Assembly (NCBI GenBank): GCA_027923505.1
Contig: BROI01000028.1
Span: 1-64,000 of the forward strand
Origin: Mayamaea pseudoterrestris
Lineage: Eukaryota
Direction of reading: 5' to 3'
Length of the DNA stretch: 64,000 bases
Part shown: piece by piece, positions 28,757 through 59,080 of the stretch
Numbering within the stretch: position 1 is the stretch's first letter
Layout: each line of letters starts with the position of its first letter
Translations under genes and position numbers: made by a program
Notes under the pieces: generated by a model
The model's database searches: none
Told to the model about the DNA's origin: nothing
The model's input: only the letters and a program-made list of their open reading frames with translations

Positions 28757-28991
28757 ATAGTGCCATTAACTTTGATTTTCAACGGCTATCATGGAACACT
28801 CTGGAGCACAGAGCCAAAAACTTTGATTTTCAACGGCTACAAATAGTACACTCCGGACGACATTGCCAAAAACTTTGATTTTCAACGGCTATCATGGTAC
28901 ACTCTGGAGGATAGTGCCAAAAACTTTGATTTTCAACGGCTGTCAATGGTACACTCCGGAGCACAGTGCAATAACTTTGATTTTCAACGGC
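28757..28991 (+). repeat. Five-copy 51-52-bp tandem array with invariant core AACTTTGATTTTCAACGGC
   Basis: CTTTGATTTTCAACGGC at 28770, 28821, 28873, 28924, 28975. Confidence 0.95.
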
Positions 28992-30260
28992 CGTCAGTCG
29001 CGCCACGGAACAAAGCTTGCGCTTTATCCATGGAACGAATGTGCACCACGGAACGAAAAGCATCAAGCTAACGACTATCCAAACAATACATACAACAAAG
29101 AGCTATATAGATTATCCCCTCACAGGTCAGGGTTGCTGGTGCAATCTGCAGCACGACTGCATGCGACATAGCGATGCAGCAACCAGTGACAACGCTGGAA
29201 AGGCTTGCTGCCATGCCTCGACGATGCAGCTGCAGCAACCAGTGATGCTAGCGGGCTAGCTGAAAACCTTGCCGACCGGCAGCAGCACGAACAACTTGAG
29301 ACGCTGGCGGAGCTGCCAAGGATCATCTGTGTGAAACGTGCAACGAAGCAGTGCGATTGGCAAGGAGGACAGAAAGGGCACGAGCAGCAACAGGCACGAC
29401 GTATCGTCAAAACGTCCATCGGAAGAACCTCACTGCAATGGCACGCAAGGCACCGGTGAATGCAAGGAACAATTCTGTGAATGAAGAACATGTCATCCAT
29501 GCCAGTACACAAGCACGCCATCATGTAAGCGGCACCTGGTCCTGCCATTTCAAGTGGTCCATTTGGCTGGCGCTTGCTTTGAAACGAATTGGTCGGCTTG
29601 GTGAATCCGCAAGAATGGAACGATACAGTCTTTATGGACCGTAGCTTTTGCCCAATTCCATGCAAATGAATGTAATTAGCAGCGCTCGAGCAAGCGTATC
29701 AGGAAGATTCGTTCCAAGATTTCAAACTGCAAGGGCGACCGTCTTTGGCCTGCGCAAGCGCTTATTGATGGATTTCAATCGTTCTTCCACGCGAAACCAT
29801 CCTTTATAAGTTATTGAAGCGATGTGTAATGGCATGTATTCATTAGCAAGAGTGGGAATAGCGCATTAAAGTGCGGCTGCAACTGACGTCGAGGAAGACA
29901 CGAATGCAATTCCAAAGAAAAGATGATGCGGCGGAACCGGTACGCCTCGTATGATAAAACCAATCAAACCAATACCGTAGATGCCGCTTGACTTGTTTAA
30001 TAAGCTTTAAAAGGCAAAAGGGATGATTTATGGTGGGTGGTGAGTCTTGTTAAAATCGCGCTATGACGCAGAAGGAACGAAAATCCAAGAGGTGTCTACG
30101 ATTAATGCTAGCAGCCCACCTCCCTGGCCCCTTCAATCAAATTCAATTGCATAAAGATACTATATTTAAATCAATCAAAAGATTAATTCATAGTATTTAG
30201 ATTTCGTGCAAAAGTACTCTTCTGGGACCGTCATTCGTTGACGTCGTCTCAATCGTTTGC

Positions 30261-33200
30261 CTACCGCAAAAACAGCAAGAACTGCTCCGGAAGAATGCGC
30301 TGCATTGGGTCGGGGTGCAGAAGACACATGAATGCATGAATTGCAGCTTTCTCCGACGCAAACGCCGAACAGCTGCGGAGACCCGCCCATTCGCTACCAC
30401 CATCCAGCGCGTACTTCGCAATATGGTCTCGAAAGACACCATTCGACATCAGTTTAATGTCAAGAGACTGAAGGCCCGGACACATCTCCATGATAACCTT
30501 CACAACCCATTGGTTCTTAGTGTGCGTCATCACGATGTGCTCCCACAAGCCCTGAGACATGCGCAGACGCTGGTCCGAGCAATCAGGACTGCCATATCCC
30601 ATGGCATGAACATTCGAGGCATGCATGAACAATTGGTGAAATTCATCAGGACAAGGAGCAGAACAGTTCTTTCCGTCGGTCCAGTTATCAAAACCCTTGT
30701 TTGCAACCAACGAGAAGAATCGAGCCAAAGCAAACGTGTCGTCGTTGCGACCGTCCAGAGGACCCTTGATCCCTAAAAGTTGATGAACGGAGTTGATTTC
30801 AGGCGATGAAGGTCCTCGAGTCGGCAACATGAGACAAGGAATGGAGCGTTTCATGTCAATAAGCAAGAACTGGTCGTCCGATTTAGGCTGCTCAAATTTC
30901 ATGCGCCCATTAATACCCATCTGCAGCCGACGTTTTCCGTCCGTCTCCTTGACGACAACCATGTTACTCGCCTTGAGGTTAAAATGAGTAATATTTACGG
31001 CTCCGTTCAATAATGTCAACGAGCGACAAACACTTTTGGCCATGTTGCGAAAACACTCTGCCGCATTCTTGTCATTCATTGTCTGCAGCTTTTTGACCCA
31101 CTGATCCGCTGGCGTCCCATACTGCGTCAGCCAAAGAATTTTCTTCTTCGTCGTCCTGACACAATGCAAGAGAACGCAAGTGCTGAGAGAGCCAACGTTA
31201 CATCGTCGGAAAAAAGTAGCGAAAAAAGACACGTACACCTCCTCCTCGTAAATGCCGTAAGAATAAACCTTGACAGAACACGATCCTAGGCTGCCAAGAA
31301 CCCTCTGTGGCAGCAACGAATAAACCAATTCCATGTACGAATCTTCGTCGTAGTCGCTGAAGCAAAGAAGCAGAGTTGGTTTGCGTAAGAACCAAATCCC
31401 AAACGACAGACACTAGCCTCCAAAAATTCACTCACCAAGTCGTCAAGACTAGCTGCTCTTTGGCACGGATATAAATCATTTTCGAGCCCTTGGCGTGCGC
31501 AACTTTGTCTTTGGACCATTCCTTAGCCAACTTGAAGCACTCCTTTGGCGACATGCGCCCCTCCTCCTCGACCGACTTTAGTGTTCGCTCCGTCGCCATC
31601 GCATCTAAAAGCTGATTCTTTGCCTTTTTAGTTGCTTCGTCAGATTTTGTGCCAAATAAGCTTGAGATTCGCTGTCGACTTTCCAGCAATGATGCCACAA
31701 TGAGCAATCGAGCAAGCATCTGACGGAGCTCCTCTTCTTGGACGGCATTGTCGATATCCTTGCCACTGCCGTCATTATTATCAACGTAAGAAACCTGATC
31801 GCCTACAGCTAGTTCTTCCAAGCCGGCTCGACTAAGCATTTGCGAAACCGCTCTTCGCATATCAGACATGCTCTTTTGCGCTGACCTCAGCCTCTGATGG
31901 TTACACTCGCTGCACCGGAATTGCTGCCATGTGATACTGTTCGGATCGTGCGGTTTATCCGTACATGACTTGCATGGCAAATAGTGTGACTGCTCCCGAA
32001 TGAGCATGTTCACTTCTGCACTCAATGAGCTCGTTGGAACAATAAGTTTGACGACGCCTGCATGCTTTGATGAGTATCTTGAAATTTCGTGCTGGTGAAG
32101 CGACAGTCGTTTGATCCGCAGCGGCTTCATCTCTTGGAGTAAACGCGAATGCAGATATCCAAGTAGAAAATGACTCTTCGTTGGCTTCGGAATAGACACC
32201 GCTTTCTCTTGCTTTCGTACGTCGAGAGCCGGTGCCAAGTTCCAAATTAAAGCCAGGCAATGACTATCCAAGGCAGCCCATGCAGGGCGCGACTGTTCGT
32301 CGGAAATGTACTCAGCAACCGATTCCAATAATTCCATCGGCTTCTTCATGTATGCCTCCTTCGCCTTGGCCTGGTTTCTGCTATTCGGTATCTTTGGAAA
32401 AGCAAAGCGTGGACCGACAGATCCATTGCCAACACGGTAATCATTTTCGAAGTTGTCCTTGGTATCGTCAAAATCGTCGTCCGTAACCGCGATAAAGAAC
32501 CGACAGTTAATGTATCTTTTGCGTAGCTCTTCAACGGATAGCTCTTTGACGCAATGGTCGCAATAGCAACAACCTCCGTGTCCGTCGTCGGAGTAATCAT
32601 CGTCCTCTTGGGTCGGAGGCGACGCGACACGACGAGCTGCATGCGGCGCATGATTCCGATTGGTAGCAGAGTTATCAGATCCAGGTGATGTAGGATTACC
32701 AATCATGAGGGATCTTGCGCGGTTGACTGTACTACTTCCTCCGCTTTGGCCACTGGATCCTCCAAAGTTTTCGTCCGAGTCATCATCGTCTGCCAAAGCA
32801 CGAAGAGCTGCATGCGGCGCTCGATTCTTCTTGACAATCCCAAATGATGTGCCAGCCATAACGCTTTTGACGTTAGTGATAGGGCTACTTCCTCCGCGTT
32901 GGCCACTGGATCCTCCAAAGTTTTCGTCCGAGTCTTCATCGTCTGCCAAGGCACGAAGAGCTGCATGCGGCGCTCGATTCTTCTTAATATCAATTTCGTC
33001 AATCCCAAATGATGTACCGGCCGATAGGCTTCTGACGTTAGTGATAGGACTACCGGTAGTAGCTTTTCCGCCTCGACGATTGCGCGGTGGAGGCAAATTG
33101 ATGGGTTTAAATGTTCGGCGGCGTCGGGGAAGAAAACGCTTGAAAGGCGAACCCCCTGGAGACAAATTACCATGAAGAGACGCCTGATTGGTATCCATTT

Positions 33201-33372
33201 CTTCAATACTAGACGCTGCACCAGCCATGAGAGTTGTTGCGCGTTTGATAGGACTTGCTTCTCCTCCATCTCGATCAGTGCGCGGTGGAGGCGATGAAAC
33301 ATTTCCTGCATTGCTGCGCCGTAAAACATTGCGCTTCAACGGCGAGCCGCCCGGATTTGACGCGCGATGCAT
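30261..33372 (-). CDS. Large protein with C-terminal divergent protein-kinase-like (probably pseudokinase) domain, spliced
   Basis: 646-aa ORF plus downstream ORF joined by intron ~31358-31435 (GTGAG donor) and probably ~31155-31201; kinase-like motifs VKVY, HFNLKASNMVV, LLIDMK, DDTFALA, LLHPDPMQRI. Confidence 0.65.
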
Positions 33373-33833
33373 GACTTCAATTTCGCTGCCTGTTTGATAG
33401 TTCGAATGAGGAAGATTGTAATTATAACAGCCGCGGCAATGGCTGCATTATTATTTGTGCCGTGGCTGCGGTTGCGGTGCGCGGCGGCCGCCAAGCGCGT
33501 GCAGCAGTCGTGGTGCGACATCATTGCGTCACGCAAGTTGATTCGAGCGGATCTTTCGGGCGACCCTTCGCTTGGATTGGACACGCAGCAACCAGCAACC
33601 CATTGAAAGTGGAGTCGGTATCAGTCATTCTGTTTGCTGCTCGACCAATTACTACGATAGCTGCATTACACAAGAACGCGTAGAGTGTAGAGAGGAGGAG
33701 TCGCACGGTAGAGGAGTGAAAAGGTGAGGCAGGAGCGACTCCATCGACGTGACGTTTGCAATGGTCTTGGCATTTATGTACATGCTCACTTGTATATTCA
33801 ATTCTCCATTTAGTCATTCACATAATTTAGACA

Positions 33834-36800
33834 ATGCTTCGACTTGCTGGAATTGGCGGCAGTCGCTTGTCTGTTTCGCAGCAAGTCCATCGAGCTCTTC
33901 GACCCTTTGTCACAAGCACAAGCATTTGCAACGAAAAGGCCAAGGAAGCAATTGCTACGGCTGCTACTGCTACTCCACTTGGCATTTCATACGATAAACT
34001 TACAGTTGGAGTACCCAAGGAGATTCTTGACTTGGAGAAACGAGTCGCAGCGACTCCAGAGTCTGTCGCTCGATTGGTAAAGGCAGGTTTCGCTTCCGTC
34101 CACGTTGAGTCGGGCGCTGGAGCCCAAGCTTTCTTTAGCGACGAATCATACCAACAGGCGGGAGCTAAAATTGTCGAAAATGCATGGAAGGAGTCCAATA
34201 TTGTTCTAAAGGTAAGATGATGGTCGTGTGTAATCGGAGCGGTTCATGTTGCATATAATGTCGCATGTCAAACCAATGCATCCATTCCTCCACGATACAG
34301 TCACTCACTCGCGCAAACACAGGTCCGAGTTCCAACCCTTGACGAAGCTAAGCAGCTCGGTGATCGTACCTTGATTTCGTTCCTTTGGCCCAAGCAAAAT
34401 GAGTCGCTCGTTAAACAATTGGCGTCGCAAAAGGCTACAGCATTTGCCATGGACTGCATTCCAAGAACTCTTTCGCGTGGACAAACGTATGATGCATTGT
34501 CCTCGCAAGCGAATATTAGCGGTTATAGAGCTGTACTCGAAGCATCCAATGAGTTTGGAAGATTCCTGGCTGGGCAAATGACAGCGGCTGGAAAGGTTCC
34601 ACCAGCAAAAGTACTTGTTATTGGCACTGGAGTGGCGGGATTGGCGGCCATTCAAACGGCAAAAAATATGGGAGCCATTGTACGAGCCTTTGACGTACGA
34701 CCCGTTACCAAGGAGCAAGTAGAAGCCATGGGAGCGTCGTTTCTGGAGGTTGACTATCAGGAAGATGGAAGTGGAGCGGGTGGATATGCCAAGGAAATGA
34801 GCAAGGAATGGCACGCAGCGGCTCGAGCCATGCTTACCAAGCAGTGCGAAGATTGCGACATTGTCATTACAACAGCCTTGATTCCCGGACGAGCGGCGCC
34901 TATCATGGTTACGAAACAAATGGTGGCGAAAATGAAGAATGGGTCCGTAACAGTCGACTTGGCAGCGGAAGCTGGTGGAAATATTGAAACGACAGTTAAG
35001 GATCAACGTATTGTCACACCCAATGGAGTAACGTGCCTTGGTTACACGGATCTGCCGAGTCGGCTGCCCACCACCTCGTCGAGTTTGTATGCGAATAACA
35101 TTTCCAAATTCTTGTTGAGTATTGGGCCGCAAACGACAAAGCAGCAAGGCTATTACTACATTGATCACGAGGATGAAGCGGTCCGAGGCATGCTAGTCTT
35201 GGAAGGGGGGAAAATGATGTATCCTGCGCCACTTCCGCCGGCGCCACCCGCTCCGCCAAAGACAGAGGAGAAGGTGCAAGCACCGGTGGTGATTGACTAC
35301 AAGAAACCTTTCGTCCAAGGAGCCAAGAATGCCGGTTACGTTGCCGGAGGCATTTTGGCTATGGGCACAGTTGCTCCGAATCCAGTCTTTGCCAGCATGT
35401 TGACCACCTTTTGTTTATCAAATGTGATTGGCGTTCAAGTCGTCATGGGTGTCACTCACGCTTTACACTCGCCGCTCATGGCTGTGACGAATGCTATTTC
35501 TGGAACCACGGCGCTTGGCGGACTTCATTTGTTAGCGCATTCATCGTGTGGATCAGCAACAGCACTTGCGGCGGCTGCAACGACCTTGTCAACGGTAAAT
35601 ATTGTTGGTGGCTTTATAGTCACGAAGAAGATGCTCAATATGTTTCGGCGCCCGGACGACCCACCCGAATATTATCACTACTATGGAGTTCCAGCAGGTG
35701 CAGCCTTGGCGCTTTATGGAATTGGATCCATGACGGGCAAATACCCAGAGCTCGACTCTGCCGCGTCCACCCTGTCGGGTTTGTTGTGCATTGGAGGTAT
35801 TGCCGGACTTGCCTCGCAAAAGACGGCGCGTCTTGGTGCAGTATCTGGGCAAGCAGGAGTTGCTCTCGGCGTTGTTTCGACGATTGGACATTTGCATCCT
35901 AGCTTCGGAACTCTGTGCAGCATGGCAGGATTGATGGGTGTCGGAGCTGTTGCTGGTAACTACGTTGGGAACCGTGTCGAACCAACTTCGTTGCCCCAGG
36001 CTGTTGCGGCTTTCCATTCACTCGTTGGTTTAGCGGCAAGTGCCGCCGCTATTGGCGACTACATCAATTGCGAAGACGTGACCAAGCTTGATGGTGTTCA
36101 CTTGGCATCAATCTACTTGGCGACGATTATTGGTAGTGTCACGTTTACTGGAAGTCTTGTGGCGTTTGGAAAATTAGACAATCGACTGGATTCGGCTCCT
36201 TTAAAATTGAAACAACGCGATCGAATCAACATGGGCCTTGGTGCTGCGACGGTGGGTGCTGGCGCCGTCGTCATGGGTGGACCAGAAGCTGCTACTGGAT
36301 TGGCGGCGTTGACGGGTGCTTTGGGTACATCTGGTGCACTGGGCATGCATATGACAGCGTCGATTGGTGGAGCGGACATGCCAGTTGTCATCACAGTATT
36401 GAACAGTTACTCTGGATGGGCGCGTAAGTTATTAATATCCGCTCCTTGTCGTCATGGCGTTGGATGATTTGGCTGTGTCCTTACATACTCCTACGAATCT
36501 TTTTATTTCTTTTTATACCTCCAATGCCGATTGTAGTATGCGCGGAAGGATTCATGCTTGAAATGCCATTGCTGGTTACGGTTGGTGCTCTCATTGGGTG
36601 CTCGGGTGCAGCGCTTACAAAGATTATGTGTGATGCCATGAACCGCGATTTAGTGAGTGTCATTCTCGGCGGATATGGTACCAAATCGACAGCCGGAAGC
36701 GGAGCTGCTAAAGTATTTGAAGGCGAAGCGACTCTTACAAGTGTTGATGCTACTGTTCAGCTCTTGACGGAAGCGGAGTCGATTATTATCGTTCCCGGCT

Positions 36801-37264
36801 ATGGTCTTGCCGTTGCTCACGCTCAGTATCCATTGAAATCCATGGTTGATGTTCTTCGCAAGCAAGGCAAGAATGTGAGGTTTGGTATACATCCAGTTGC
36901 TGGTCGCATGCCAGGTCAATTGAATGTCTTGCTTGCGGAAGCGGGCGTTCCGTACGATATTGTTGAGGAGATGGAGGAAATCAACGACGATTTTAAAGAT
37001 ACGGATGTGGTCTTGGTGATTGGAGCAAATGATACAGTCAATTCGGCCGCCGAAGACGATCCCAACTCGCAAATTGCCGGCATGCCAGTTCTTCGCGTGT
37101 GGACTTCCAAACAGGTAATAGTTTTGAAGCGATCGATGGCGGCAGGGTACGCTGGCGTCGACAATCCCGTCTTCGTGAAACCTAATACTGCCATGCTTCT
37201 TGGCGACGCAAACGACACTGTGGAGAAGCTGGATCTGGGAGTGAAGGAGTACTACGGAAAATAA
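33834..37264 (+). CDS. NNT: Mitochondrial proton-translocating NAD(P) transhydrogenase, single-chain alpha-beta type (introns 34212-34322, 36424-36536)
   Basis: [81 protein letters not shown]; Arg/Ser-rich transit peptide; both introns restore the frame. Confidence 0.97.
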
Positions 37265-37401
37265 TGCGATAGCTTGCCATTTTGCTACTATCGTACGCAT
37301 GATAATATGTAGACTCCATAGCTGTAGCAATGTAACGGCTTACGTACGTCGAAACTTCTCGACCAACAAACAGTCTTTTCAACACATATGCAGAGCTCGC
37401 T

Positions 37402-40400
37402 TTATAAGACGCCGACAAAGTACCTTTGGTAACGATCGTACCAATCGGTCCGCCAATTCTCTATCGAGTCATCAATTAAACAATTCACCAGCTCACGGCA
37501 GGCTCGATCGTTCAAATCGAGACGGAAGCGTTCCCTAAGTTGTCGGATTGCTTCATCTGGCCGCCCTCGAAAACAATTTAATTCTTCATTTCCTTGCTTT
37601 AGCATTTCGACCATCAGGATTATTTCCATGCAGTTACGACGCAGAGTGATAAAGCTCTTGTAGCAAAGCTCTCGATACGTTCGAAACAACCGGCTATGAG
37701 GCCCTCCTAACAAGTCAACAAAGTCACGCGTCAGCTTGAACGGCGCACTCTCGAAACCAACATTCGATCCTGGACTACTTAAAAAGAAGAATCCAAAATC
37801 AATATGAATAACGTGCCCTCGATTGTCCAATAAAATATTGCCATTGTGTCGGTCCTTGATTTGAAGGAGGTAACAGACGATGCTATATGCCGCCAGCGAC
37901 TCCACAAAATTGGCTTGTGCACCAGCAAACTCCTCGCTTCCCTCGATGCCGAAATGGGAGATAAAGAATCGTTTCAAAGTAGAAAAATTTATATCGTTCC
38001 GTTTCAGCGAATCGAGGGATATTGTGTCGGGTATCGCTTCGACGATGCCTCCGTTATTCGTCAGTGCAATTATCTCATAGGGACACAGCCAAACGTTGAC
38101 TTTTTCTCGGGCGAGTATGGCAGCCATGCGATATATCAACTGCGACGCAAGCTGCTCTTGACGCAGGTCGTCATTTGCTTTAATCAGAATGGGAAGTAGC
38201 CTCCAACCGGGTTTTGCACCAAAAGCACTCTTTTGTCGAATGCGACTCTCCTTGGCTTGCCAACTTTCGCGAAAGACAACAGGAGGTCGTGCCGCTGGAA
38301 GATTCGTTTGTAATGAATCTGCATGTGCTGTCATGCGAATTGACAGTTGAGACTGTGAGCGTGGGCTTGCTGTTGGTTCGCCTTCATGGTCTGATCCGTA
38401 CGGAAGCATCGATGACTCGGAGTCATCCAATACTCCAGTTTCTTGTCGTCGAATATTTGAACTCTTCTCCGTTTGAAGCTTTGCATGAGGCGACGACCAT
38501 TGTCCCATGGACGCTAACGAAGCGGAAGAATTATTTCGGGTAATGATGGGCGAAGCGGTGGTGCCCTGATTTTCTGGCATGTATGAATCAAGCGACCGAG
38601 CAGTCTCAATATCGCCTTGCTCGTCACTGCGATTCATTCGCTGCAATGAAGCACTGGCAATAGTATCAACGCCGTCAAGAACCGCTTCCGCCACTCTCAA
38701 CGATTTCAACTCGTCTGACGCTGATCGCTCGCGAAAGAGATTAATTTTTTCTCTCATTTGCGCCGACATTTTGTCCGTTGCACCCTTGACGGTTCCCGTC
38801 ACCTTGTCGAAGAACGTTGTGCGGCGAGAAGGATCTCTGCGTCCGTATCTCCATTCTGCCAACAGCTCACTCTCCGCTGAGTCCATTTCAAGAGTCTCTG
38901 CCAATGGACGTCGGCCTGGCGAAGGAGATTCGGTCGCTTCTGTACTCGCAGATTGTAGCGTTTGATGAGTGCGTTTTGGCAACAAGCTCCAACCAGCAGG
39001 TTTGCGCCGCCTCGGCTTGTAGGCAACAACTTCCATAGTAATGATGCAAGGTACTCGCTCTTTGGTTCCAAGCGAAATACTCTCTTCAGGAACGATGCGC
39101 CAGACTCGATGATTCGAATTACCGATCGGCATGTAAATGCTGCGTGAAGGAAAGTGGCAATGTTAAAAAGCTGCGAATACTAAACAATTTGTTCGAGCAT
39201 ATTTTGCTAGCAAATACATACGCATTATCCGGCAAAAGATCGCATTCAATTATTTGCAATTGCTTCCTCAACTCGTCTCGTCGCTCCGAAACCGGAACTT
39301 CAAACATTCGATCCGCCAAGACTAAAAGCGTATCCAAAAACCGAGGCGTCCTGTCAAACTGCTCCGTCGTGTTCAAAATCAATTTCCCATCATGCTTGTC
39401 GTCATTCAAGGAAAGCCGCGACTCGCCCTCATTCAGAGGCATAAACCCATACTTGTGATGCGAGGAAATGACATCCAAGTGACGGACGGAAGGGAATCCA
39501 CTCCTTGGATTAATTGGCACCAAACCCTTTTCAACAGCGTACATTAGCTTGGAGGGCGACTGGAACCACTCGTTCTGTTGGTTTTCAGCTACAAGTTCCG
39601 TCGGTTCGGTTACTAGATTGGACTGACATGACACAAAACTCGTGTCGGACGATGTCGAGTCATCATCGTTCGCATGGTGTTCACTATTCCACAAGCCGTC
39701 ACCATCCTTTGTATTTTGCAGCGGCGGACCAAAGGCAAGTATTTTCGCAGATACTTCACCGCACTCCTTGACGCGCATCATGAGCCGTTGGATCAGTGCT
39801 CGCTCTTCGGGTAGAAACCGTTCCGTCGCTGTTGCTTCCAATAATTGCTGCGGCATATTGGAACGTGATGCACGACGATGGTTGCATGTACTCATAGCTG
39901 TAGCGTCGGGCATGGCTGGTTCATCCAAAAATGGAGACAATGGAGACTCCGAGCTGGTGCGACTCCGGAGACTGCTTGCGGGTCGTGGCTGCATTGGTGG
40001 CTGCTGCTGTCGCGTTGACGCTTGCGCCGGTGCTTCCAAACACCATGCCCGCAGAAACCAGTAGCATCGGTGAGCAAACTGCACGTTGCGCCGGCACTTG
40101 TTCAATATCCACTCCTCGAGTTTTGGAGACGTTTCGAGTGCCCCATGTAACAAGAATGAAAGTAGTTGCGGCACCCAAAACGTCAATGAAACTCCATCGT
40201 CCATGTCAAAAACATGATCAAGTCGTTCATTATCCAACACGTCTTGATAGGCAAACAGTTGCAGCAGGACTCTAAATGGAGTCACTACTGTAGTCAGTGA
40301 ATGCTGCACGATGTTGGACGATGTCGTTCGTTGGTGGTGCTGCAGGTTGACTCCAGTTGCTGGTCCATTCGGACTGGTGAGTTGCAAAGGCTGCGACGAC

Positions 40401-41161
40401 GACGATACAGAAATGCGATTGGTAAAGTCTTCTAGTCGAGCCGACCATTCCGTCTTGGCGATTCTTAGTCGTGTCTGAATATCTTCCATGAAGTCAGTCA
40501 TGGTATGCAAAAATACATCGTCCGTGGAATGCGCATGTTGTTGCGAGGGCGAGGTTATCATGAACGAATTTCCATTCTGTTGATGCTGCTGATTGCTGAA
40601 TTGTCTCAACTGAAAGTAAAGTGACGGAGCCCTCCTTCCACTGCTCAACGCATTTCCATTTAACATGCTGTATGAATATTGTTGCAGTGGAGCTGTCGAT
40701 CGAACGTGAACCAGTAGAATCAAGTGACAAATGTTGCTCACCATCGTCAAAATGAGCATCCACCAGAGCCTTCGAAAGTCGTAGAACAACTCCATTATGC
40801 CATTATCGTTTTGACTATTGCTTGGCTTGTCCAAGGGAAGCAGCGATTCGATTGACTCTGGATTAATGAATGCCAATCCAATCATTTGCGCAAGTACCAG
40901 TAGCATTGTCGTCCAGTAAAGCAACGAGTAAGCCGTCGAAAATCTCAAGGCCGTTCCAGTGTAGGAGTGAAAGAGCATTGGAAATATTAACAAGATGACG
41001 CGAATAATTGCCAAGTATATGAGGTAGCGCGAACAGTAAATCCAAGAGTATGACTCGCCATTTTCCTTTTCGCGCTTGGAAAGGCCGTGAAATTGTCGGC
41101 CGAGGAATACCACGACGCCGTCGGAAGCGAGGGCGCTTAACGCTGGCAGCAGAAACGGCAT
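37402..41161 (-). CDS. PI4K: Phosphatidylinositol 4-kinase (type III beta-like), intron 39140-39221
   Basis: FWVPQLL and FAHRCYWFL helical region, TKERVP, KANDDLRQEQLA, LQIKDRHNGNILLD, HIDFGF, FESAPFKLT, YDRYQ; intron gives DNA|IYMP in frame. Confidence 0.95.
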
Positions 41162-48084: not shown

Positions 48085-48416
48085 ATTTCCTTTAGCCTTT
48101 ATAAGCAGTACTGTAATTGAAGGAAACCGACAATGGTTGGGATCGGGATACCAACAAGTTGTGTCAAGCAGGAACGATGGGTGTGGTCGACATGAAGAGA
48201 CTGATTTGGTCGTGTATGTTGTTGTCGAGGAGGAAGCAATGCAGGCATGGCCCGCGTAACAGTCGTGACCGTTGCGACACATAAGTAGACGCGAATTTAC
48301 GTTGAAACGTCCCGAATCAAGCCGGGCCGTACCCGCTGTGACATCAAGCTGCGTGACGTCTCGTTCCATGATTCGACCATCGACCAAGATTTTGATCATG
48401 CACAGTAAGCACCGAC

Positions 48417-50186
48417 ATGGATATGCAGGAATCATTCGACGCATCAACAACATGTAGCAGCAAAAGCAAACAGAAAGCCGTCTTGGTACTGGCGAGTTCC
48501 GGTGGAGGAACCGCGACTCTTGGTCACACGGATCCAATTTCGCTGCTGCAAGCTATCGATGACGAGTTACGCAATATCCATGCACGCGTCGAACATGTTG
48601 TCTTTGTTAGTCTTTGCGATGGATCCGGAATGGATTTGGTTAATGCGAGTAAAAGTCAAGCCGTGTTGTATGAAGCGACCCGAACGAGTAAAAAAGAGCA
48701 AGACAAGCAGGAGCTGCAAGATCTTTTCCTTCACCCTGCAATCCGCGACTACATGGCCAAGCAAAAATACGACGAGCGATTCGCCAATATGATACAAATA
48801 TCAAAGATTGACGCAGTCATTTGTATCTCCTTTTCTCCAAATCAATTTCCAAAGACCTTGACGGCGGCCGCTCAGCGAAACATTCCAGTGACCGGTAGTG
48901 GAGGAACGTCACTGTCGCAGGCGGCAAGTTTGTACAATGTTCAGATCGTTGGAAACGCAGGTGGATCCGTTGCGACGACCTGCTGGACGAGAGCAGTATC
49001 CTACACGAGCTCATTGGCCAAGTATTGGAAGCGATCGTACACTGCAAAAGATCCAATGATAGCTCAAACGACATCGCCGACCATGTCGTCCGTTTTGAAT
49101 AGTTGTCTTGGAGCCTTTTGGGCTGTTTGTCTCTTGAAAACAATTATCATTCCATTCGCTGTTGCTGCAGTGTCAAAAGTCCTTTCGTATGACGCCAATG
49201 ACGATGTTAAATCGCTCCTTTACGCGCTGGAACACTGGTGCATTCCAGTCTTATGTTCTGTCGTCATGGCAACGTCTACATCTTGCCGCCAAGTCTCCAA
49301 TGCACCAGGACTAACCATGGCGGCAATCATTGCCAGTGCATCGTCGCATCAGTCCATGCTTGGTGGTCTGTTGGCTGGTAAACTTGTTGCCAGGTGGACA
49401 GTTCCCCTGCTTTTCGCCTGCGTCACGCGCAACGTTCCAGCTACCATGACCAATCTACTGACGAGTGGAGGTTTGGGCGCATTTATTGCCCTAATCCTGC
49501 TTCCATTGACGCCGTGGCTGCGCTACATGACAACCTTGATACGACTCGGCATCTATTGGACAGTTCAACAACCCGACTACCGCATCAACATGGTGATTGC
49601 AAGTGCATATGGAATGCTTTCCTGCTATGGGAGCAAAGTCGGCTGGTACCATTGCTGTCATTTGCCGCTCATATTAGTGGAAATGGAGCATGGCGACCCA
49701 AGTATCTTGGGCGCCGTCGACGAATTGACGCTGGTACTGGTGTGCTCTGGCGTTTGCCTTGGCAATCTGCTTGGCCGATCAACATGTTCTTCTCGCTACG
49801 GCCAAGTCCAAGACGCGGATGCGTCGCTCTGCTGGCGTGGCCTGAGGATCAATTTACTTTACGGAGATTTTGTCGAAGCATGCTATCCACTCATGGAAAA
49901 GAGTAGAATAATAAACGCTGCTTGCTACTTGGCCAGCGGGCTCTCATGCGAAGTTTTGTTTTACCCTTGCCAATCAACATCAGCAGCATCCGGTGACGCG
50001 GCAACCCTTGCTGTGACGAAAAGCATGGCGTATCTGCCTTGGCCGGTCTCTTGTGTTTTGGCTAGCGATCAAGCACTTCGATTTGTGGTCGCCAGTGCCG
50101 TCGCTGTCATCGTTCCAATGTGCGCCACCTTTCTGCACCATGCAGCGATCGCAACCCAAAGTCGTGAACAGAAAAAGGAGTGCTAG
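48417..50186 (+). CDS. Membrane protein resembling bacterial putative PTS sugar-transporter EIIC-like proteins, with a soluble N-terminal domain
   Basis: Uninterrupted 589-aa ORF; VLVLASSGGG, PVTGSGGTSLS, GGSVATT..TRAVS, GWYH..LPLILVEME.G, GLRINLLYGDFVEACYP; many hydrophobic helices. Family assigned from recalled motifs only. Confidence 0.6.
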   Translation: MDMQESFDASTTCSSKSKQKAVLVLASSGGGTATLGHTDPISLLQAIDDELRNIHARVEHVVFVSLCDGSGMDLVNASKSQAVLYEATRTSKKEQDKQELQDLFLHPAIRDYMAKQKYDERFANMIQISKIDAVICISFSPNQFPKTLTAAAQRNIPVTGSGGTSLSQAASLYNVQIVGNAGGSVATTCWTRAVSYTSSLAKYWKRSYTAKDPMIAQTTSPTMSSVLNSCLGAFWAVCLLKTIIIPFAVAAVSKVLSYDANDDVKSLLYALEHWCIPVLCSVVMATSTSCRQVSNAPGLTMAAIIASASSHQSMLGGLLAGKLVARWTVPLLFACVTRNVPATMTNLLTSGGLGAFIALILLPLTPWLRYMTTLIRLGIYWTVQQPDYRINMVIASAYGMLSCYGSKVGWYHCCHLPLILVEMEHGDPSILGAVDELTLVLVCSGVCLGNLLGRSTCSSRYGQVQDADASLCWRGLRINLLYGDFVEACYPLMEKSRIINAACYLASGLSCEVLFYPCQSTSAASGDAATLAVTKSMAYLPWPVSCVLASDQALRFVVASAVAVIVPMCATFLHHAAIATQSREQKKEC

Positions 50187-50760
50187 AAAAACGATGGACT
50201 TGTAACGAACTCTAGGATTAGCCCACTCTATCCGTACCGTAACATAGAACGCCTACTCCAAGATTGTGATGACAGTGAGTAGTATCCCGCGTGCTATAAT
50301 ATTATACATATCGGGGCTATTTTAGACCGTACTTCCGAGATGACATAGGGCAATGTAAAAATGTCAGTCTGACATTTTGTTGGCCATGCCGTTGATATTA
50401 AAGAGGAACTTTAGGTCATCGGACGTGTTCGCGTTAAAACTGTCTAGAGTCACCATAGTTCCGAGGCAATAATGTTTGTGGTCGATAGGCAATATAACAA
50501 AATTTATAAATGTCAATTCGTTCGAAGTGATACTATACCCTGGGACATTTACGGAGTAATTCTGTCATTGCCCAATGACGCGGCATCCGATTGAAACCGC
50601 GCCAGATGTGTCATCCATGTGTGTCATTCACGTGATTCGCCGCTTCCGGAGCGAGATGGTGGTGCCTCGCAAAAGTTCCCAGCGGACCATCGTCGTCGTC
50701 GACGTTCCACAAACGCAGCTTCGCTTTACAATTAAAACATATCCCGTTTACTCTGCTAAC

Positions 50761-51441
50761 ATGGACGAAAGCTTCTTTGCAAGCCTCTATTCAGAACAGA
50801 TGACAAACACGACAACGAGTTCAGCGTTGTCTTCATCCATCAAGATGGCAGCGTCCCCGTCGTCTCCTTCGAAATCTGTCACCAGTGAAATTGCTCCTCC
50901 CGACGATTTCATCTGCCCCATTTCGCTCCAGCCGATGGTTCACCCACTAACAACAAGAAGCGGCCTCAACTTTGAGCGGTCTGCCATTCTCAACTGGCTT
51001 CAGCAAGGAACTGGCGCCTGCCCGTTGACGCGTCAACCTCTCCGTCCATCCGACCTTATCCCAAACAAGCAGCTGGAAACACGCATTCGTTTCTGGCGCA
51101 TGCAGAATAACATTCCCGAGCCATCTGCAGATGACGACGACTTTGATGCTGTCGCATTTCTTGGTTTCCTGCCAGTGGGAGAATCAAAGACGATGGAGGT
51201 TGTTTCGCGTCACGAAGCTGCTCCAATGTCTCTTCGCGACGTGGCTCGGGCCGAGCTGCGAGCAAACCAGCGTACTGCCATTCACATGGCCGCGACCCGC
51301 ACAAGAGCTGTGGCTGCGGCTGCGGCTGCTGTTCCGGCGGTGGAGGTTGCATCCACCATGACGCGGCGACCAAAGGAAGGTCGTCGAAACTTTTTGAGCC
51401 GCATTTTAAAGCAAACAACGGAGGATTTAGAGACCCTATAA
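50761..51441 (+). CDS. U-box domain protein
   Basis: PDDFICPISLQPMVHP…G.NFERSAILNWL…CPLTRQPL…LIPN. Confidence 0.92.
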   Translation: MDESFFASLYSEQMTNTTTSSALSSSIKMAASPSSPSKSVTSEIAPPDDFICPISLQPMVHPLTTRSGLNFERSAILNWLQQGTGACPLTRQPLRPSDLIPNKQLETRIRFWRMQNNIPEPSADDDDFDAVAFLGFLPVGESKTMEVVSRHEAAPMSLRDVARAELRANQRTAIHMAATRTRAVAAAAAAVPAVEVASTMTRRPKEGRRNFLSRILKQTTEDLETL

Positions 51442-52021
51442 AGCCAATGCAAGCAGTAACTGTTATATAAAACTTAATAGAGAGAAATTTGCAACCAAAA
51501 TCATTCCGTAGCTTGGTTTATGTCCATACCCGTACCGTAGCAAGTTGCTGTCAATTGTCAACGTTAACGATCCATTCCGACGGGACATTAACAGCACCGT
51601 CAAGTCAAAGGAACACGCTGATCTTGACTCTCATTATAAAGGTGACTTTCAATGCTTTATCGTTGACAAAGTGACCACCTAGGGGTTGCTACGTTTGTCG
51701 AACGACAGGAATGTTGGGCAGGGGATATGGACCATGGACGCTCGCATCATCGGATCGAAAATCTTGCGGAAACCATTTTGGTGTTCTTGTAACCACAGTA
51801 AATGGCAAATTCTTACACTTCGAGAGAGTAGCTATTGAATGGCAGTTTTGACTGTCAGAAAGCCCAGAAAGATGAACGCAAATCCTGTTTCGGCGAGTCG
51901 TGGATATTGTGCATGAAATGTCTCATCGGTTTTGCAAAAGACGATTGCAAAAGATTTTGGACAAAGCTGCAGCAGCGCGGAGCGCAAAGGAAACTTGTGA
52001 TACACCAAAGCATTAGCAATC

Positions 52022-53551
52022 ATGTCCGTACTCTCCCTTACAAGCTTGCCGGAGGCATTCTTGCATCCAATCGCGTCGTATCTGGAAGGTCCCGAAGTCT
52101 TGAGCCTGCTGTCGTGCAGCAAAATGCTCCGCGACATGGGAATGAACGTTGCCTTTTGGAAAAGCCTCGCAGCTAGTATATCATTTCCACCTTTGATTTC
52201 AAATGCTGTAACACAAAGTAACATTGACTCCGTGGCTGACGCAAAGCAAGACTTTATGCAAGCAGCCTATTGCCGACTTTTACCAGCTGTGCGGTGGAAG
52301 AGGGAGCTGATCGTTTATTTTGGAGAAGCAAGACCGTCGGGCCGAGAAGGTCACATTGCCTGCCGACTGCACGGAGGAAATGATGAGAATGACTTGTTGA
52401 TAGTCACTGGAGGATTCACGGCTGACACTGCCATTTACGTGACGAACTTGAGCGGAAACACCTATACCGACTGGCGTGCCATGTATTCAACGATATCGAC
52501 ACCAATGGTCTATGGAGCAACGTTGACAACCCTTGATGCAACAAGAGCTCTCAGATTTGGAGGGTTTCTTTCTGGAGGATATGCAAACGAGACTCATCAT
52601 GTTGCAATCTTGACTGTCGATTATGATAATGGCTCTGCTCAATGGACGCCTCAGGAGACTAGCCACTACAATGTGCTTCCTGCATCCTTGGCGAGAGCCT
52701 ATCATTCAGCAACGCTACTACTGGGTCGGTATTTGATTGTGATTGGAGGAATGAAGTCGGGCGAATCGACATTGTACCCAGTGCTGTTGGATACCGTCAC
52801 TTGGACGTGGCACAATGTCGCGACGAATGGAGACGAACCATCTCCTCGCCATGGATGTTCCGTTGTTTTCGATGAAATTAACAACCGCCTCGTCTTGTTC
52901 GGCGGCGGTTCTGGATCGAACTTGCTTCACAGTGGAAATGACTTTGCAGAGGTATGGGAACTTGAAATGTCGGAAGGCTGGCGGAACAATCTTATCAAGT
53001 CATTTCCATGGAATTGGAACCAGGTGGTGAAGGACACATTACCGTCAGACGAGATTGCAGATGGTTCGCATGCTTCACTAGACAGCACCTTGACGCTGTC
53101 ACCCTCAGAGAAGCGAATTTTGGGCCGATGCCATATTGCCCATCACGTTTCTCCAACTAAAGTCGTCCTTGCCTTTGGTTCAGGAAGTCCATCGACGAAC
53201 GGCCTCATAATTTTTGACTTGGTGGCAAACACCTTTATGAGGCCTCGGCTCCTGGGATGTCTTCCTGTGGCTAGACTTTCGGCGGCATCTGTATACCTTG
53301 AAAACATGGGTTGTATTTTTGTGCATAGCGGTTTCTCGACGCAGCGTGAAGGTACTGTCAACGACGCACATCTATTGGACTTGGCGCCTGCACTGACTGT
53401 GAGTTCGCGCTTTGATGGTAGTTTTCAATTTACTGTTAGTCGTTCGAGTTACATTTTGAGGGCCCCGAGAAGGAGAAGGATTTGGGTTGTTCGGCCAATA
53501 AGACAGCGACGCAGACAACCACGCCCCTCCCATGGTGAAATTGACGATTGA
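52022..53551 (+). CDS. F-box plus Kelch-repeat protein (3' end may be spliced)
   Basis: N-terminal LTSLPEAFLHPIASYL; Kelch-like repeats REGH..GG, RAYHSA..IVIGG, PRHGCS..LFGG. Confidence 0.85.
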   Translation: MSVLSLTSLPEAFLHPIASYLEGPEVLSLLSCSKMLRDMGMNVAFWKSLAASISFPPLISNAVTQSNIDSVADAKQDFMQAAYCRLLPAVRWKRELIVYFGEARPSGREGHIACRLHGGNDENDLLIVTGGFTADTAIYVTNLSGNTYTDWRAMYSTISTPMVYGATLTTLDATRALRFGGFLSGGYANETHHVAILTVDYDNGSAQWTPQETSHYNVLPASLARAYHSATLLLGRYLIVIGGMKSGESTLYPVLLDTVTWTWHNVATNGDEPSPRHGCSVVFDEINNRLVLFGGGSGSNLLHSGNDFAEVWELEMSEGWRNNLIKSFPWNWNQVVKDTLPSDEIADGSHASLDSTLTLSPSEKRILGRCHIAHHVSPTKVVLAFGSGSPSTNGLIIFDLVANTFMRPRLLGCLPVARLSAASVYLENMGCIFVHSGFSTQREGTVNDAHLLDLAPALTVSSRFDGSFQFTVSRSSYILRAPRRRRIWVVRPIRQRRRQPRPSHGEIDD

Positions 53552-53758
53552 AACTCTTGGTTTGTCTCTCCCCGAGACGCGAGGCTGGCAGCAGAGCAAT
53601 GGCGCCTACGTATACCTACGTGTATATAGCACTTTGAACAACTGCAGTCATTGTTCTAAAAATGGGACCAAGACCTGTTGATGGCGACAAAATATAATCA
53701 TTTATAGGTTACGTTTTTCATTCCATTCTATAGTTACATGGTCGCTGCATATTCACAT

Positions 53759-54880
53759 CTATTCAATCACCGCCAGGCCGGCTAGCGATGGATCGCCTAG
53801 TACAGCCGTCAGTAACCCATCCGTTCCATACCATAGCAAAATTCCTGCCGTGAAGGGGGTCACCCAAGGAGCAATCTTGCCGTAGAAACCCGAGTTGGAC
53901 TGTCGCAGTTTGGCCAAGGCTTGTCCACCAGTCGATGCAACAAGCAGCAGCGGCGTCGAATATCCAACTGTGTAACCAAACAAGAGTGCTGCGCCAAGCA
54001 ATGGGCTCTTGCTTGACGCAACAAACGCTAAAATGGAAGTTAGCACAGGAGTCGCACAAGGAGATGCGACGAGGGCAGATGAACCACCGAGTAAAAAGGT
54101 TCGCAGCAAGGATCCAGCTTCGTCCTTTTCCGACTCGTCTTTCATGATGCGGCCAGTTCCATCAATCAATATTGGCTTGTTGTCACTATTGATTCCGCTG
54201 GTACTTTTTCCTGTAGTCAAACCTTTGAATGAGGGCAATGGAAAGTTGACAAGCTCCAGCAACTGAAACCCCATGATCAAACAAATGACGTTCGAAACAA
54301 CCGCCAAGATTATCCCACTTGCTCCTGCGGTTCCACCAAAGACGCCTCCAATCTCCGCCGCAGCTACTCCCAAGCTGCAAAAGACGACAGCTAGACCTCC
54401 AGCAAAGGCCAAGGTTGGCAGCAAGGCTTGTTGATCGTTGCGTTCACCCGCCGCCGTGCTAATGTAGGACATTGTCAATGGCAGCAAGCCCCAAACGCAG
54501 GGCGAAAAGCTCGTCAGCAAGCCAGCGCCATACATGATGGGAAGGCTTGTCATGAGATTGGACGGATCTTGCTTGAGAGAAAGGTTGGCAAGTGATCCAG
54601 CGACAGATTGGGCGTTGTAGACGAGTTCTTCCAGATTCACTGCGGCGGCTGCAAGTGAGGTTGATGAAGTTGCTGCTGCTCTGCTCGGTGCTACAAGACT
54701 GCTCTCTGATTGTTTCATTTGATTTTCTGCTGTCCTTGCCAGGTATGCATCCATCTGAGTATATGTATATGCGGGTGAAAAGGCCATAGAAGAACTTGCA
54801 GCCGACAGTAGCAGAAACGGAACGAGATGCGTACGTCGAGCCGGCCTCATTGTCGTCGGTATTCTTGCACGGCTTCCCAT
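53759..54880 (-). CDS. ccdA: Cytochrome c biogenesis protein CcdA (DsbD-type transmembrane domain), likely plastid-targeted
   Basis: AGLLTSFSPCVWGLLP and LVASPCATPVL redox cysteine motifs; signal peptide followed by AF (SSMAFSP). Confidence 0.92.
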   Translation of the reverse strand: MGSRARIPTTMRPARRTHLVPFLLLSAASSSMAFSPAYTYTQMDAYLARTAENQMKQSESSLVAPSRAAATSSTSLAAAAVNLEELVYNAQSVAGSLANLSLKQDPSNLMTSLPIMYGAGLLTSFSPCVWGLLPLTMSYISTAAGERNDQQALLPTLAFAGGLAVVFCSLGVAAAEIGGVFGGTAGASGIILAVVSNVICLIMGFQLLELVNFPLPSFKGLTTGKSTSGINSDNKPILIDGTGRIMKDESEKDEAGSLLRTFLLGGSSALVASPCATPVLTSILAFVASSKSPLLGAALLFGYTVGYSTPLLLVASTGGQALAKLRQSNSGFYGKIAPWVTPFTAGILLWYGTDGLLTAVLGDPSLAGLAVIE

Positions 54881-55270
54881 TGCTCTCGTGGATTTCAAGT
54901 CTGCGCTTTGCAGTTTGGTCTCAGTCAGAACGTTATAATCGCGCCAAAGGCAATGATCTGACAATGAATGCATCAATCGTCGCCATGCTGATGGTGGCGG
55001 CAAAAGAATCGCGCGATGACGCCGAAGAAACGTCGCGACGCCGCGCCGCCGCGCCGCGCTGAGGTGCAGTATAGTTGCGTCATTGGTTACCGCTACGACG
55101 TCCGTTTCATCGCATGCTGTCATGACGATGTTTCAATTGCCAGCTCCAGCTCTATGATAGCGACGCAGACAACACCGCTCCGGCTCGAACAAAGGAAGGA
55201 AAGGAATAGAGGCAGCTTATCCCAATTGCCTGATTGCCAACGAAACTTTAAGGTGAATGAGTTGGAGAAA

Positions 55271-56602
55271 ATGCGGTCGAGCTATTGTCTACCGCGATCG
55301 CGTTTGACGATCAGGTCGGAAGGCAGCCGACAAGGAAACAATCTGCATCGGTCGGGAATTGAACGACGCGTATTGCTCTTGCAAAGTCTAGCAATCTGTC
55401 TGCTTGTCGTTTTTACTTCAGGATTCTGTATAAAGAGCGCTTCTTCGGTATTAATACAATCGAGAGCTTGGCGCCGCTGCGAGGCCGCAAGGACAAGAGC
55501 CAGCTACCTCGCTACAAGCAACGACAAGAGCAGTGACAACAATGTCGATGCATCACCCACTCAGCCATCACTCGACAAGGGCTTCAACTTACTGGAACTC
55601 GCATCCGGTATTGTTCCACAAGGAACCATTGTCAAGACGGTTCGACAAGGCTGGCGCTTTGTGTGGCGACGCATGATGGCAGAGCTCGCGCCGCAGGATG
55701 CGCAAGGCAACTATCGCCGACCAACCTACAAGTTCAAAGGATGTATTGGACAAGCTGACTATGCTGACGAAGCAGGGCGGTATCATTTGTACGTTGGCAA
55801 TCCTTGTCCTTGGTGTCATCGCTGTCTGCTGGCTGTAAAGTTGATGGGTTTCACGTCGGACCAGGTTGGAGTGACGCGTCTTTTGGACGAACCGACAAAG
55901 GCTTCGCGGGGAGGGTGGATCTTCACCGACGAGCAACCAGATCCGCTCGGAAGCTACGACTTGCGCGAGCTCTACGATAAGCTTGATCCGGGCTACAAGG
56001 GGCGATGCACGGCTCCATTGTTGATTGATAAAAGGACTCGCAAAATCGTATCTAACGAGTCATCCGACATTGTTCGCATGCTTGACCTAGCAAGACTTGG
56101 CGGTTCTGCAACAACAAATCGTTTGCGTCTATACCCAGAGCACCTTGGCGCAAGTATTGATGCTACCAACGAGTGGGTCTACTCATTACTCAACGACGGA
56201 TGTTACCGATGCGGATTCGCAACAACTCAGCAAGCCTACGACCAAGCGTCAGCCGGTGTACGCCAAGGACTGGCAAAATGCGAAGCAATTCTGGAGAAGC
56301 AAGCATTTTTGTGTGCCGACGTCTTTACCGAAGCAGACTTACGCTTGCTGCCAACAATGCTTCGCTTCGACGGCGCCTACGCGCCACTGTTTCGAGCCGG
56401 TGGTGCTCACTTGAAATTACAAAGTGATTATCCGAACATACACCAGTGGATGCGCCGCTGTTGGAAGATGCCTGGTGTGAAAGAGTCGATTGATCTGGAA
56501 GATGCAACATCAAGCTACTTTCGACAGCTCTTTCCCTTGAATCCAGGTGGCTTGGTTCCGTCTCCTGTATCCGCATCATCTCTTGGTCTTGACGAAGAAT
56601 AA
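55271..56602 (+). CDS. Glutathionyl-hydroquinone reductase (YqjG/ECM4 omega-like GST) with N-terminal targeting extension
   Basis: GRYHLYVGNPCPWCHR, YKGRCTAPLL.D, IVSNESSDIVR, NDGCYRCGFATTQ.AY, ADLRLLPT..RFD, LNPGGLVP. Confidence 0.92.
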   Translation: MRSSYCLPRSRLTIRSEGSRQGNNLHRSGIERRVLLLQSLAICLLVVFTSGFCIKSASSVLIQSRAWRRCEAARTRASYLATSNDKSSDNNVDASPTQPSLDKGFNLLELASGIVPQGTIVKTVRQGWRFVWRRMMAELAPQDAQGNYRRPTYKFKGCIGQADYADEAGRYHLYVGNPCPWCHRCLLAVKLMGFTSDQVGVTRLLDEPTKASRGGWIFTDEQPDPLGSYDLRELYDKLDPGYKGRCTAPLLIDKRTRKIVSNESSDIVRMLDLARLGGSATTNRLRLYPEHLGASIDATNEWVYSLLNDGCYRCGFATTQQAYDQASAGVRQGLAKCEAILEKQAFLCADVFTEADLRLLPTMLRFDGAYAPLFRAGGAHLKLQSDYPNIHQWMRRCWKMPGVKESIDLEDATSSYFRQLFPLNPGGLVPSPVSASSLGLDEE

Positions 56603-58824
56603 CAATCCTTGTGTCTTTGTGCCCATGTCAATACAACAAACTATGGGACCAATCAGCACTGCAAATGCAATTGAGCGATACTTGAGTCTCAGGCTACTCC
56701 TAGGCGCGTACAAGTGAAACACGACACAAACGCCCTACCGGTAAGCCATTGTATACTAGAAGCAGCTTACTGGAACAATAGTTGCAGGACTTCTACAATT
56801 TGTACATAGCATACGCGCATGCCGCAGGCTCGCCCGCGTAAGCTACTACTCCGCATATTATGTGATACACTAAAAAGGTATCGGCGAAACCTTTACACTG
56901 GCGTCGTGCACAAGCTGCGTGGTCGAGTAGTCGAGTTGACTGACAAGAAAAGCGCATGCGGCGTACGTACGCGAATCTTTTCGATCGTGTATTTTACAGG
57001 GGCAATATTTGTAAATGACGTTAATTAGACATTTATAATGAAAACCACAGCCCCTCCACGAGCCATTGACTCATATTTGATATCAATTGGTGCATGGTGA
57101 CGAATGTGGCGCATGAATGGTCGTGTCTGGCGTCCATTTTTGGACAATTTCTCCGAATCATCGCTGAGTCAACCTCTTCTCGGGTATGGGCTCTTATGGC
57201 TCGACCCATCACACGAACCACTGCATTTTCTTTCGCCCTTGCTATTTACAAAGTCAAGTATACATAATGAACTATTTTCATCAACGCAATGGCGCTTCTC
57301 CACCCAGAATGCCTAGGAGAACTATTCAAGAACCATACATTCCTGACATTCCTGTTGACGACGCTGAGTCCGAAGAGTGTCCTCGCGATGTGGCTCCTCG
57401 CCAGCCCCGACGGTACATTGATACTCAACCTGAGCATCCAAGAATCAAGAGCGTGATGGGACCGTCACGTCAAGAGCCTCACAGAGATTTTCCGCAGAGG
57501 TCTTACTCACATACTGGGAGCTTGGGCACGAACAATGCTATTACTCTAAATACGCGTTGCACTCCTTCACGAGACAGCGTCATTCTGAACAAGTTGGCCA
57601 TTCCAGGACAAACGCACCCAAACTCAAAGCAAGACATGGACGTTTTCAACACGCTTCCATTTACAGTTACGCAACTGAAACTCATACTCCAGCAGTGTAT
57701 GCCTCGCCAAGCGTGATGGGAGATGGAACAAGCGATGATTGACAATGATCTCGTCGCGAGTTGCTCTACCTCAATTGCAGTTACAGCTACCAGATTATCA
57801 CAATCATAAATGAACATATTGGCACTGCAAATGTACATAGCAAAGTAGTAGGTACACCAGCGATGACTAAATCGTAATCCTGCTACTATAGAAAGTGTAC
57901 TCGATACAGTTGTAGCCGGATGCATTTACTACCACACTTGAAGAAGGTCGAGCACCAACACTAATAACGGACGTAGTGTACATGGCACTGTCTACAGGAC
58001 TTCGATACATTGTAGCTGTGTGCACAACTCCTCTCTCGGAGTGCCTATAGCAAACTAGCAAAAGGCCTAAGCGCTAGTGAAAGCAGCTTGCGCAAAAGCT
58101 TAATTCATTCTCAATGGACACTTCTTGTCGACGGTACATCAATGGTAGGGCATGACAGTAGAGGCGTCCATTTTGTAGGTCATGTGAAACGTGTTGGTCG
58201 TTCATGCGAGTGCTGATGACGGAAATGTGAGCTGTCTGTCGGAAGCATGAGAAGAGCTCACGCAGACTCGAAGCTTCCTCGTCGTAGTTTTTGAGGGGTC
58301 GTCAAAGGATTGGCGAAACATCTTCACTAATGACAACACGCCTTCCTTGGCACTGCGTCGATGCGTCGGCTTTGTGTACTGCTGCGTTGCTGCATCCATC
58401 GTCAAAAGCATCACAGATCACAGCCTTTTTAAGACATGCGCGCTGGCAGACCATGGACGCAATCAAATCGATTAAATATTGAACACTTAGCATGTTCGGT
58501 GAATGTACCATTAAACATCAATCAGCCGGTGGCTCCCTCGTTCAATTTCGTCGAGGCTTGCGGCCATGACTCACACAAGCCTGCCACTCACAGTGGACTC
58601 CAAGAAACTGATTTAAGCGTCATCCTGTGCGCTTTAAAAATCTCTCACGCTCGGAGGCTATGTTAGAATGCATCGAATGGGCTCCATGCTGTGAGATGTT
58701 GGGTGGATTAAAATACTTGTACGTCGTGGTGGTGATCGCATCAGATTTCGTCCGCAACGCGGCCCACGCACGACCACTTATGATTCCTCCAATCAGACTG
58801 AATGAAGCTTGTTGGGCCTTTTTT

Positions 58825-59080
58825 CAAAGTTTCTGGTAGTACTGTTTGAGCCACAGTCGACGTACGTTGAACATCAAAGTTATTGGCACTACTTTTTGGG
58901 CAAGAGTCGACGTGCGTTGAAAATCAAAGTTATTGGCAGCAACAGTCGACGTGCGTTGAAAATCAAAGTTATTGGCAGTACTGTTTGAGCAACAGTCGAC
59001 GTGCGTTGAAAATCAAAGTTATTGGCACCACTCTTTGGGCAACAGTCACCATACGTTGAAAATCACATTTATTGGCACTA
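58825..59080 (-). repeat. Five-copy ~50-bp tandem array; core is the reverse complement of the 28.8-kb array core
   Basis: CGTTGAAAATCAAAGTTATTGGCA (or close variants) at 58865, 58915, 58954, 59004, 59054 (periods 50, 39, 50, 50). Confidence 0.95.

Follow-up and report, generated by a model that had tools for sequence, protein, structure and literature searches.

Among described systems, the closest to the sequences analyzed here are the m1m2 germline promoters of Caenorhabditis, which derive from the MITEs CERP2 and CELE2 and are bound by HIM-17; for these promoters, the parent MITEs have been identified, with thousands of copies outside promoters, and both binding and function have been shown (10.1101/2022.01.21.477252). 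Also in Caenorhabditis, clusters of heat shock elements are borne by Helitrons, which carry repeated binding sites upstream of genes (PMC6927752). In Arabidopsis, the SIRC are dispersed short-repeat cassettes whose spacers vary; they have been proposed to represent the interiors of MITEs deprived of their ends, and they peak in pericentromeric heterochromatin (PMC10342631).

We report here on two short arrays in the diatom Mayamaea pseudoterrestris that are locally amplified members of a genome-wide cassette family. They lie in the window, i.e., the whole 64-kb stretch of DNA that was analyzed, which opens contig C28 of a genome of 30.6 Mb in 41 contigs. Like the m1m2 promoters, the cassettes combine two motifs, arranged divergently or in tandem, are repeat-derived, and are enriched at many promoters (here through an ORF-start proxy). 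They differ in that no parent MITE was found, in their few non-promoter copies (4/73 in convergent gaps), and in forming multimers of as many as nine units, spaced at about 4 or 5 turns; moreover, they are known here from sequence alone. By analogy, the cassettes would work most like m1m2 promoters, yet they would fall outside the MITE-derived two-motif class. The two other parallels are looser. Like the Helitron-borne clusters, the cassettes group repeated, putative sites upstream of genes, but no Helitron ends or Rep/helicase were found and the motif is unrelated. As with SIRC, they are dispersed, made of short repeats, and variable in their spacers, but they adjoin gene starts, and their two-box grammar, which includes inverted pairs, is fixed.

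Bacterial REP/BIME are mosaics of few boxes in both orientations, and the bipartite general regulatory sites of yeast (Abf1) have a variable center and lie at divergent promoters. Likened by description only, the cassettes are also few-box mosaics in both orientations, with no RAYT-like mobilizer seen, and their Y box is bipartite with a variable center and lies at divergent promoters. The two boxes also bear what we presume to be a resemblance to TCF/LEF, CHR, E2F, Myb, and ZNF143 sites. Our literature search, with most subscription journals outside its reach, returned no paper on such a diatom cassette family. The main text of PMC9724779, in its accessible part, contains neither "promoter" nor "motif," and its supplementary repeat table could hold the family unnamed.

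Two arrays of one cassette family

Array A (28742..28991, plus strand) consists of five units with a period of 51 to 52 bp, each made of a reversed Y box, an X box, TTT, and a decayed second X arm. Array B (58824..59096, minus strand) has six X boxes and five Y boxes with a 50-bp period, one unit being cut to 39 bp. The two five-core arrays noticed in the first-pass annotation were recovered, with plus-strand cores at 28768-28989 and minus-strand cores at 58865-59070, as was the TTGA-N3-TCAA dyad of the core; at three mismatches or fewer, the window holds 10 core matches versus 0.26 expected, and none of 100 shuffles reached 10. The count of five copies per array is correct for the cores, array B having an additional sixth X box at 58824, and the reported spacing of ~50 to 52 bp holds in A (51, 52, 51, and 51 bp) and breaks down in B (50, 39, 50, and 50 bp). 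The inter-core sequences had been described as unrelated, but both arrays carry the same 20-bp Y box. This box is reversed relative to X in array A and forward in array B, so that the spacers of the two arrays are related and, by their Y boxes, A and B both point to the minus strand. The match noted between the outermost units is present, but it is simply the Y-X junction found in other units too.

The left flank of array A (28695..28741, plus strand) is common to the type-A subfamily, where it provides an anchor in six loci, and is without the outward ATG that four relatives carry. Its right flank (28992..29020, plus strand), common to L032, L041, and L055, reads ACG where these three loci have ATG. 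Array B is followed by a trailer (58225..58823, minus strand) without intact ORF, common to L031, L038, L050, and L061 at 67 to 75% identity, of which the first ~60 bp (with the GGCCC and GATTGG words) recur in about 15 cassettes. On its other side, a leader common to the B subfamily (59097..59147, plus strand) contains, at 59120 and 23 bp from the array, the first ATG and putative start codon of the adjacent JmjC-domain ORF (59120..60943, plus strand). Ordinary host genes outside the family lie between the arrays (30261..56602; transhydrogenase, PI4 kinase, U-box, kelch, DsbD, and GST). The inner flanks are indeed poorly coding, their ORFs at 29123-29698 and 57168-57713 being without Pfam match, and the outer side of array A is also without long ORF for about 1.1 kb.

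A and B are not special as a pair: the 17-bp core has 109 exact matches genome-wide (reversed control, 0). The 14-bp X box, GCCAA[A/T]AACTTTGA, has 282 exact copies (reversed control, 0) and usually occurs as an inverted pair with arms 3 or 6 bp apart; the form X-N6-X' gave 45 matches at two mismatches or fewer, some counted on both strands. For the 20-bp Y box, ACT[G/A]T-N4-[C/T]AAA-[G/C][T/A]-GTA[G/C]T, the strict pattern has 125 matches genome-wide (reversed control, 0). A cassette comprises 1 to 9 Y boxes, between which the linkers hold one X box or an inverted X pair. The full unit reads Y, X, 3 or 6 bp, X' and measures 51 or 54 bp, and the core originally seen corresponds to X followed by the first part of a decayed X'. 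The decayed X arm precedes a forward Y in the 50-bp unit of type B and a reversed Y in the 52-bp unit of type A. At least 98 cassettes were mapped on 29 contigs, 91 of them by matrix, and neighboring Y boxes have the same orientation in 236 of 240 cases. Among the first 100 of the 125 strict Y matches, 16 fell outside known cassettes. Fourteen extra Y sites were fetched, of which 2 proved to be new cassettes and 12 were without X; 8 of these 12 have an outward ATG no more than 300 bp away, and one resembles a decayed cassette.

Some other features of these regions were recorded. Lone Y boxes head intergenic short repeats of 40 bp (L055:7665-7768) and 71 bp (L158). Inward of array A and close to a lone Y box, 197 bp of the window (29767-29963) are 72% identical to L113:4147-4338 and represent an unnamed dispersed repeat. 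Near the contig start, window positions 2132-10834 hold satellite arrays of 168 to 185 bp.

Most cassettes lie near outward-facing ORF starts

Cassettes are placed near outward-facing ORF starts, which were used as proxies for gene starts, without annotation. Of 84 nonredundant cassettes (91 minus 7 duplicates or weak ones), 69 lie at most 300 bp from an outward ATG, versus 42 to 64% of controls (pooled, 49%). The 73 classifiable cassettes occupy 47 divergent, 22 tandem, and 4 convergent gaps, versus 23/90 divergent and 18/90 convergent among control gaps (P = 7e-7); an earlier gap background (23/116 gaps, 37%) was dropped as biased to 3' ends. The orientation of Y showed no relation to the nearest start (35 versus 34), and no shared function was seen among cassette-adjacent genes in the scanned flanking ORFs. 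Array B probably serves the JmjC gene. Array A departs from this pattern: its gap is ORF-poor and one of the four convergent ones, the two outward ATGs of its relatives are missing, and it looks like an orphan copy.

Position-specific conservation and spacing

The boxes are conserved position by position. The Y box has conserved ends, with non-symmetric conserved positions, and a near-random 4-bp center, positions 6 to 9 carrying 0.03 to 0.26 bits versus 1.2 to 1.7 bits at the best flanking Y positions (40 boxes). Within B-type arrays, differences affect 44/688 conserved positions versus 59/473 positions of the Y center or tail (P = 0.0005), and within A-type arrays 45/432 versus 57/351 (P = 0.019). 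The same two classes separate in four host segmental duplicates (conserved positions, 14/375; Y center, 8/51; P = 0.002), but in these young duplicates the conserved positions did not differ significantly from the flanks (24/403; P = 0.18). In six older pairs, conserved positions differ at 45/476 versus 109/518 in the flanks, a contrast inflated by ascertainment through X: the loci were found through this box, and its conservation is thereby biased upward. Changes accumulate faster in the Y center than in the flanks; this points to conversion between units, and gene conversion can mimic constraint.

The units are spaced in two modes. Once nine cassettes (duplicates or weak) were dropped, 163 of the 208 Y-Y spacings of 80 bp or less measured 49 to 54 bp and one measured 45 to 48 bp. 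The short spacings, from 25 loci, belong to units minus one X arm; although these units end at some 30 distinct junctions, 30/32 of the spacings are 41 to 44 bp long. The two modes correspond to about 4 and 5 helical turns, and lying 10 bp apart they are compatible with helical phasing without being proof of it; the 49- to 54-bp mode is wider than half a turn and is a consequence of unit length, and six spacings of 55 to 58 bp are out of phase. Conservation by position and these spacing modes support, by inference, the initial suggestion of phased protein-binding sites in an undescribed family.

A proposed model of bidirectional promoter cassettes

We propose, with moderate confidence, that these are repeat-derived, protein-bound bidirectional promoter cassettes spread by duplication and recombination. 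X and Y would be putative binding sites for one or two host proteins, which may act on one helical face and hold the bidirectional promoter open. Spread would occur via promoter-fragment duplication plus recombination or conversion between cassettes, while growth in place would proceed through unequal exchange, the cassettes presumably being maintained by conversion and selection. Such spread would fit the 52 cassette pairs that have only one flank in common, versus 11 that have both (these counts being non-independent), and the long duplications that end at or near cassettes (see below). Their origin in an extinct DNA transposon is plausible. An unlikely extension would be a self-propagating promoter: 100 or more bidirectional promoters would carry phased X/Y cassettes bound by a host protein, and these would double as recombination points, copying themselves, swapping the genes to either side, and rewiring divergent gene pairs without a transposase.

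Diatom promoter grammar is poorly known, and ~100 cassettes with two defined boxes, a site with a variable center, and a spacing rule offer a cis-element that can be tested directly; they are also candidates for compact bidirectional promoters in diatom engineering. If the cassettes were also rearrangement points, promoter turnover would be linked to gene-order change. If inert, they would still represent a repeat family split into unrelated pieces by standard tandem-repeat tools.

A transposon relic and other explanations

Alternatively, the cassettes may be inert relics of DNA transposons or MITEs, with X and Y as former sites of a transposase or a partner protein, conserved only for as long as the family was mobile, and with promoter placement reflecting an insertion preference; we regard this as possible but on the unlikely side. 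Such relics would fit the flanks, which form many small subfamilies with 30 to 100 bp in common, often through an ATG (78/178 flanks are unique), the B subfamily having a common leader and trailer with up to 1.2 kb alike for L031/L061. They would also fit local clustering, since 25 neighbor pairs lie within 35 kb versus 10.3 expected (maximum of 20 in 2,000 draws), four of these pairs being tandem duplicates. Nonetheless, around 89 cassettes no terminal inverted repeats were found above chance (mean, 15.5 versus null 15.6; maximum, 24 versus 28), and no target duplication was seen at eight B-type and six A-type ends, which are ragged. The initial reading of A and B as subterminal repeats of one element with a linked transposase or recombinase found no element ends, only ordinary genes between the arrays, and no such enzyme among the 30 window ORFs scanned. 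DDE, Helitron, and recombinase domains were equally missing from the 92 of 177 long ORFs scanned around the first 37 loci, where the only three matches of mobile type were all Copia-type, and from the 78 scanned among 81 outward ORFs of the later loci. Searches with flank DNA for a parent element gave known copies only, and the shared flanks contain only broken short ORFs. Moreover, the two-class substitution pattern persists in host duplicates and few copies lie outside promoter-like gaps, which also argues against relics.

The Harbinger-type elements of this genome would fit a relic, as they have arrays followed by GATTGG and an ATG, and a Y-like box stands beside their 30-bp arrays in L049 (score, 19.3) and L078 (score, 12.5). 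As a source of X, Harbinger loci gained no support from three DDE_Tnp_4 loci, where no X scoring 13 or more was present; DDE_Tnp_4 was the family covered by the genome-wide transposase search. L049:2659-4825 (G000:C13) contains two tandem ~1.08-kb nonautonomous Harbinger-type elements, one of them with the Y-like box, inserted inside a Y box with a CTG duplication, and its paralog L054 represents the empty site. The Harbinger-type element L078:976-6076 (G000:C1) measures 5.1 kb, its terminal inverted repeats being 43 bp long and its 30-bp arrays subterminal. An inverted cassette pair around a 472-amino-acid ORF on C26 was also considered as an autonomous element and rejected, the ORF being without Pfam match and reading like a membrane protein rich in histidine. 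The 472-amino-acid ORF at L059:2748-4166, beside a cassette, has hydrophobic segments, a long histidine-rich tract, and no Pfam match, and is possibly a metal transporter.

An ordinary dispersed minisatellite, spread by conversion and breakage at AT-rich palindromes and with no binding protein, is in our view distinctly unlikely. It would account for the 50- and 52-bp head-to-tail arrays seen at many loci, A and B included, but most loci are mosaics rather than tandem arrays of one consensus unit. The X-N-X' palindromes could correct one another, but Y is conserved at non-symmetric positions and also stands alone, and different deletions converge on 41 to 44 bp. Duplication breakpoints do coincide with cassettes: four of eight long duplications have an end inside a cassette or at most about 40 bp away, which may also be due to selection for complete promoters. 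A 42-bp repeat family that abuts two cassettes fits a minisatellite as well. This family also occurs within a few kilobases of several more cassettes (L062:3525-3695, L129, and others), and within its unit an apparent, weakly Y-like stretch exceeds Y by one base.

That the cassettes are iteron-like replication origins or chromatin organizers, rather than transcription elements, is very improbable. As phased, intergenic direct repeats with AT-rich dyads, next to genes without functional theme, the cassettes would suit this role, but there is about one cassette per 300 kb, unevenly distributed, with none of those mapped on 12/41 contigs. The iteron reading raised in the first-pass annotation also found no linked initiator gene or initiator domain in the scanned window and flanking ORFs, and the plasmid collection gave no cassette match. 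Rfam gave none either. In metagenome and viral contigs, the X-dyad pattern had 0 matches and the Y-X pattern had 1 isolated match without array, taken as chance; the searched collections include few diatoms, and zero matches thus give no proof of species restriction. No RNA sequencing run with cassette sequence appeared among the matches listed.

Finally, it is hardly credible that a single 30-kb block, mobile or invertible, has A and B as its inverted ends, as their reverse-complementary cores 30 kb apart might suggest, given that the two arrays belong to different subfamilies with different flanks, are co-oriented by Y, have 24 other neighbor pairs within 35 kb as counterparts, and enclose housekeeping genes, and that the contig pieces listed for two public runs (X1 and X2) keep the reference junction at B. 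In each run, the right junction of B occurs in two versions, which both connect to the JmjC side, and no empty site or inversion joint of array B was present among these pieces. Summed contig depth at B is about 50 times that of the flanks, which is not a copy number. At window positions 55154-55319, an allele in both runs swaps 164 bp for 165 other letters.

A noncoding 1.5-kb element, with a GC-rich terminal hairpin and an A run, was encountered in six copies, including G000:C26:219500-220993 (L060, L151), C38:193143, and the C3 copy at L034; two copies contain a nested LTR element. All six left junctions end in TTTTC, and in the X cores of two different cassettes two of the six copies sit at the identical base, the right junction at L034 being a third at that base. 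This landing in the X core is consistent with accessible DNA and equally with the ATTTTC target of the element. Among other neighbors of the cassettes, a palindromic TACCGGTA-like word occurs within ~15 bp of L046, L047, L052, L091, L110, and L135, the GATTGG and GGCCC words stand at a fixed distance past about 15 B-type cassettes, and a 169-bp satellite directly adjoins cassette L041.
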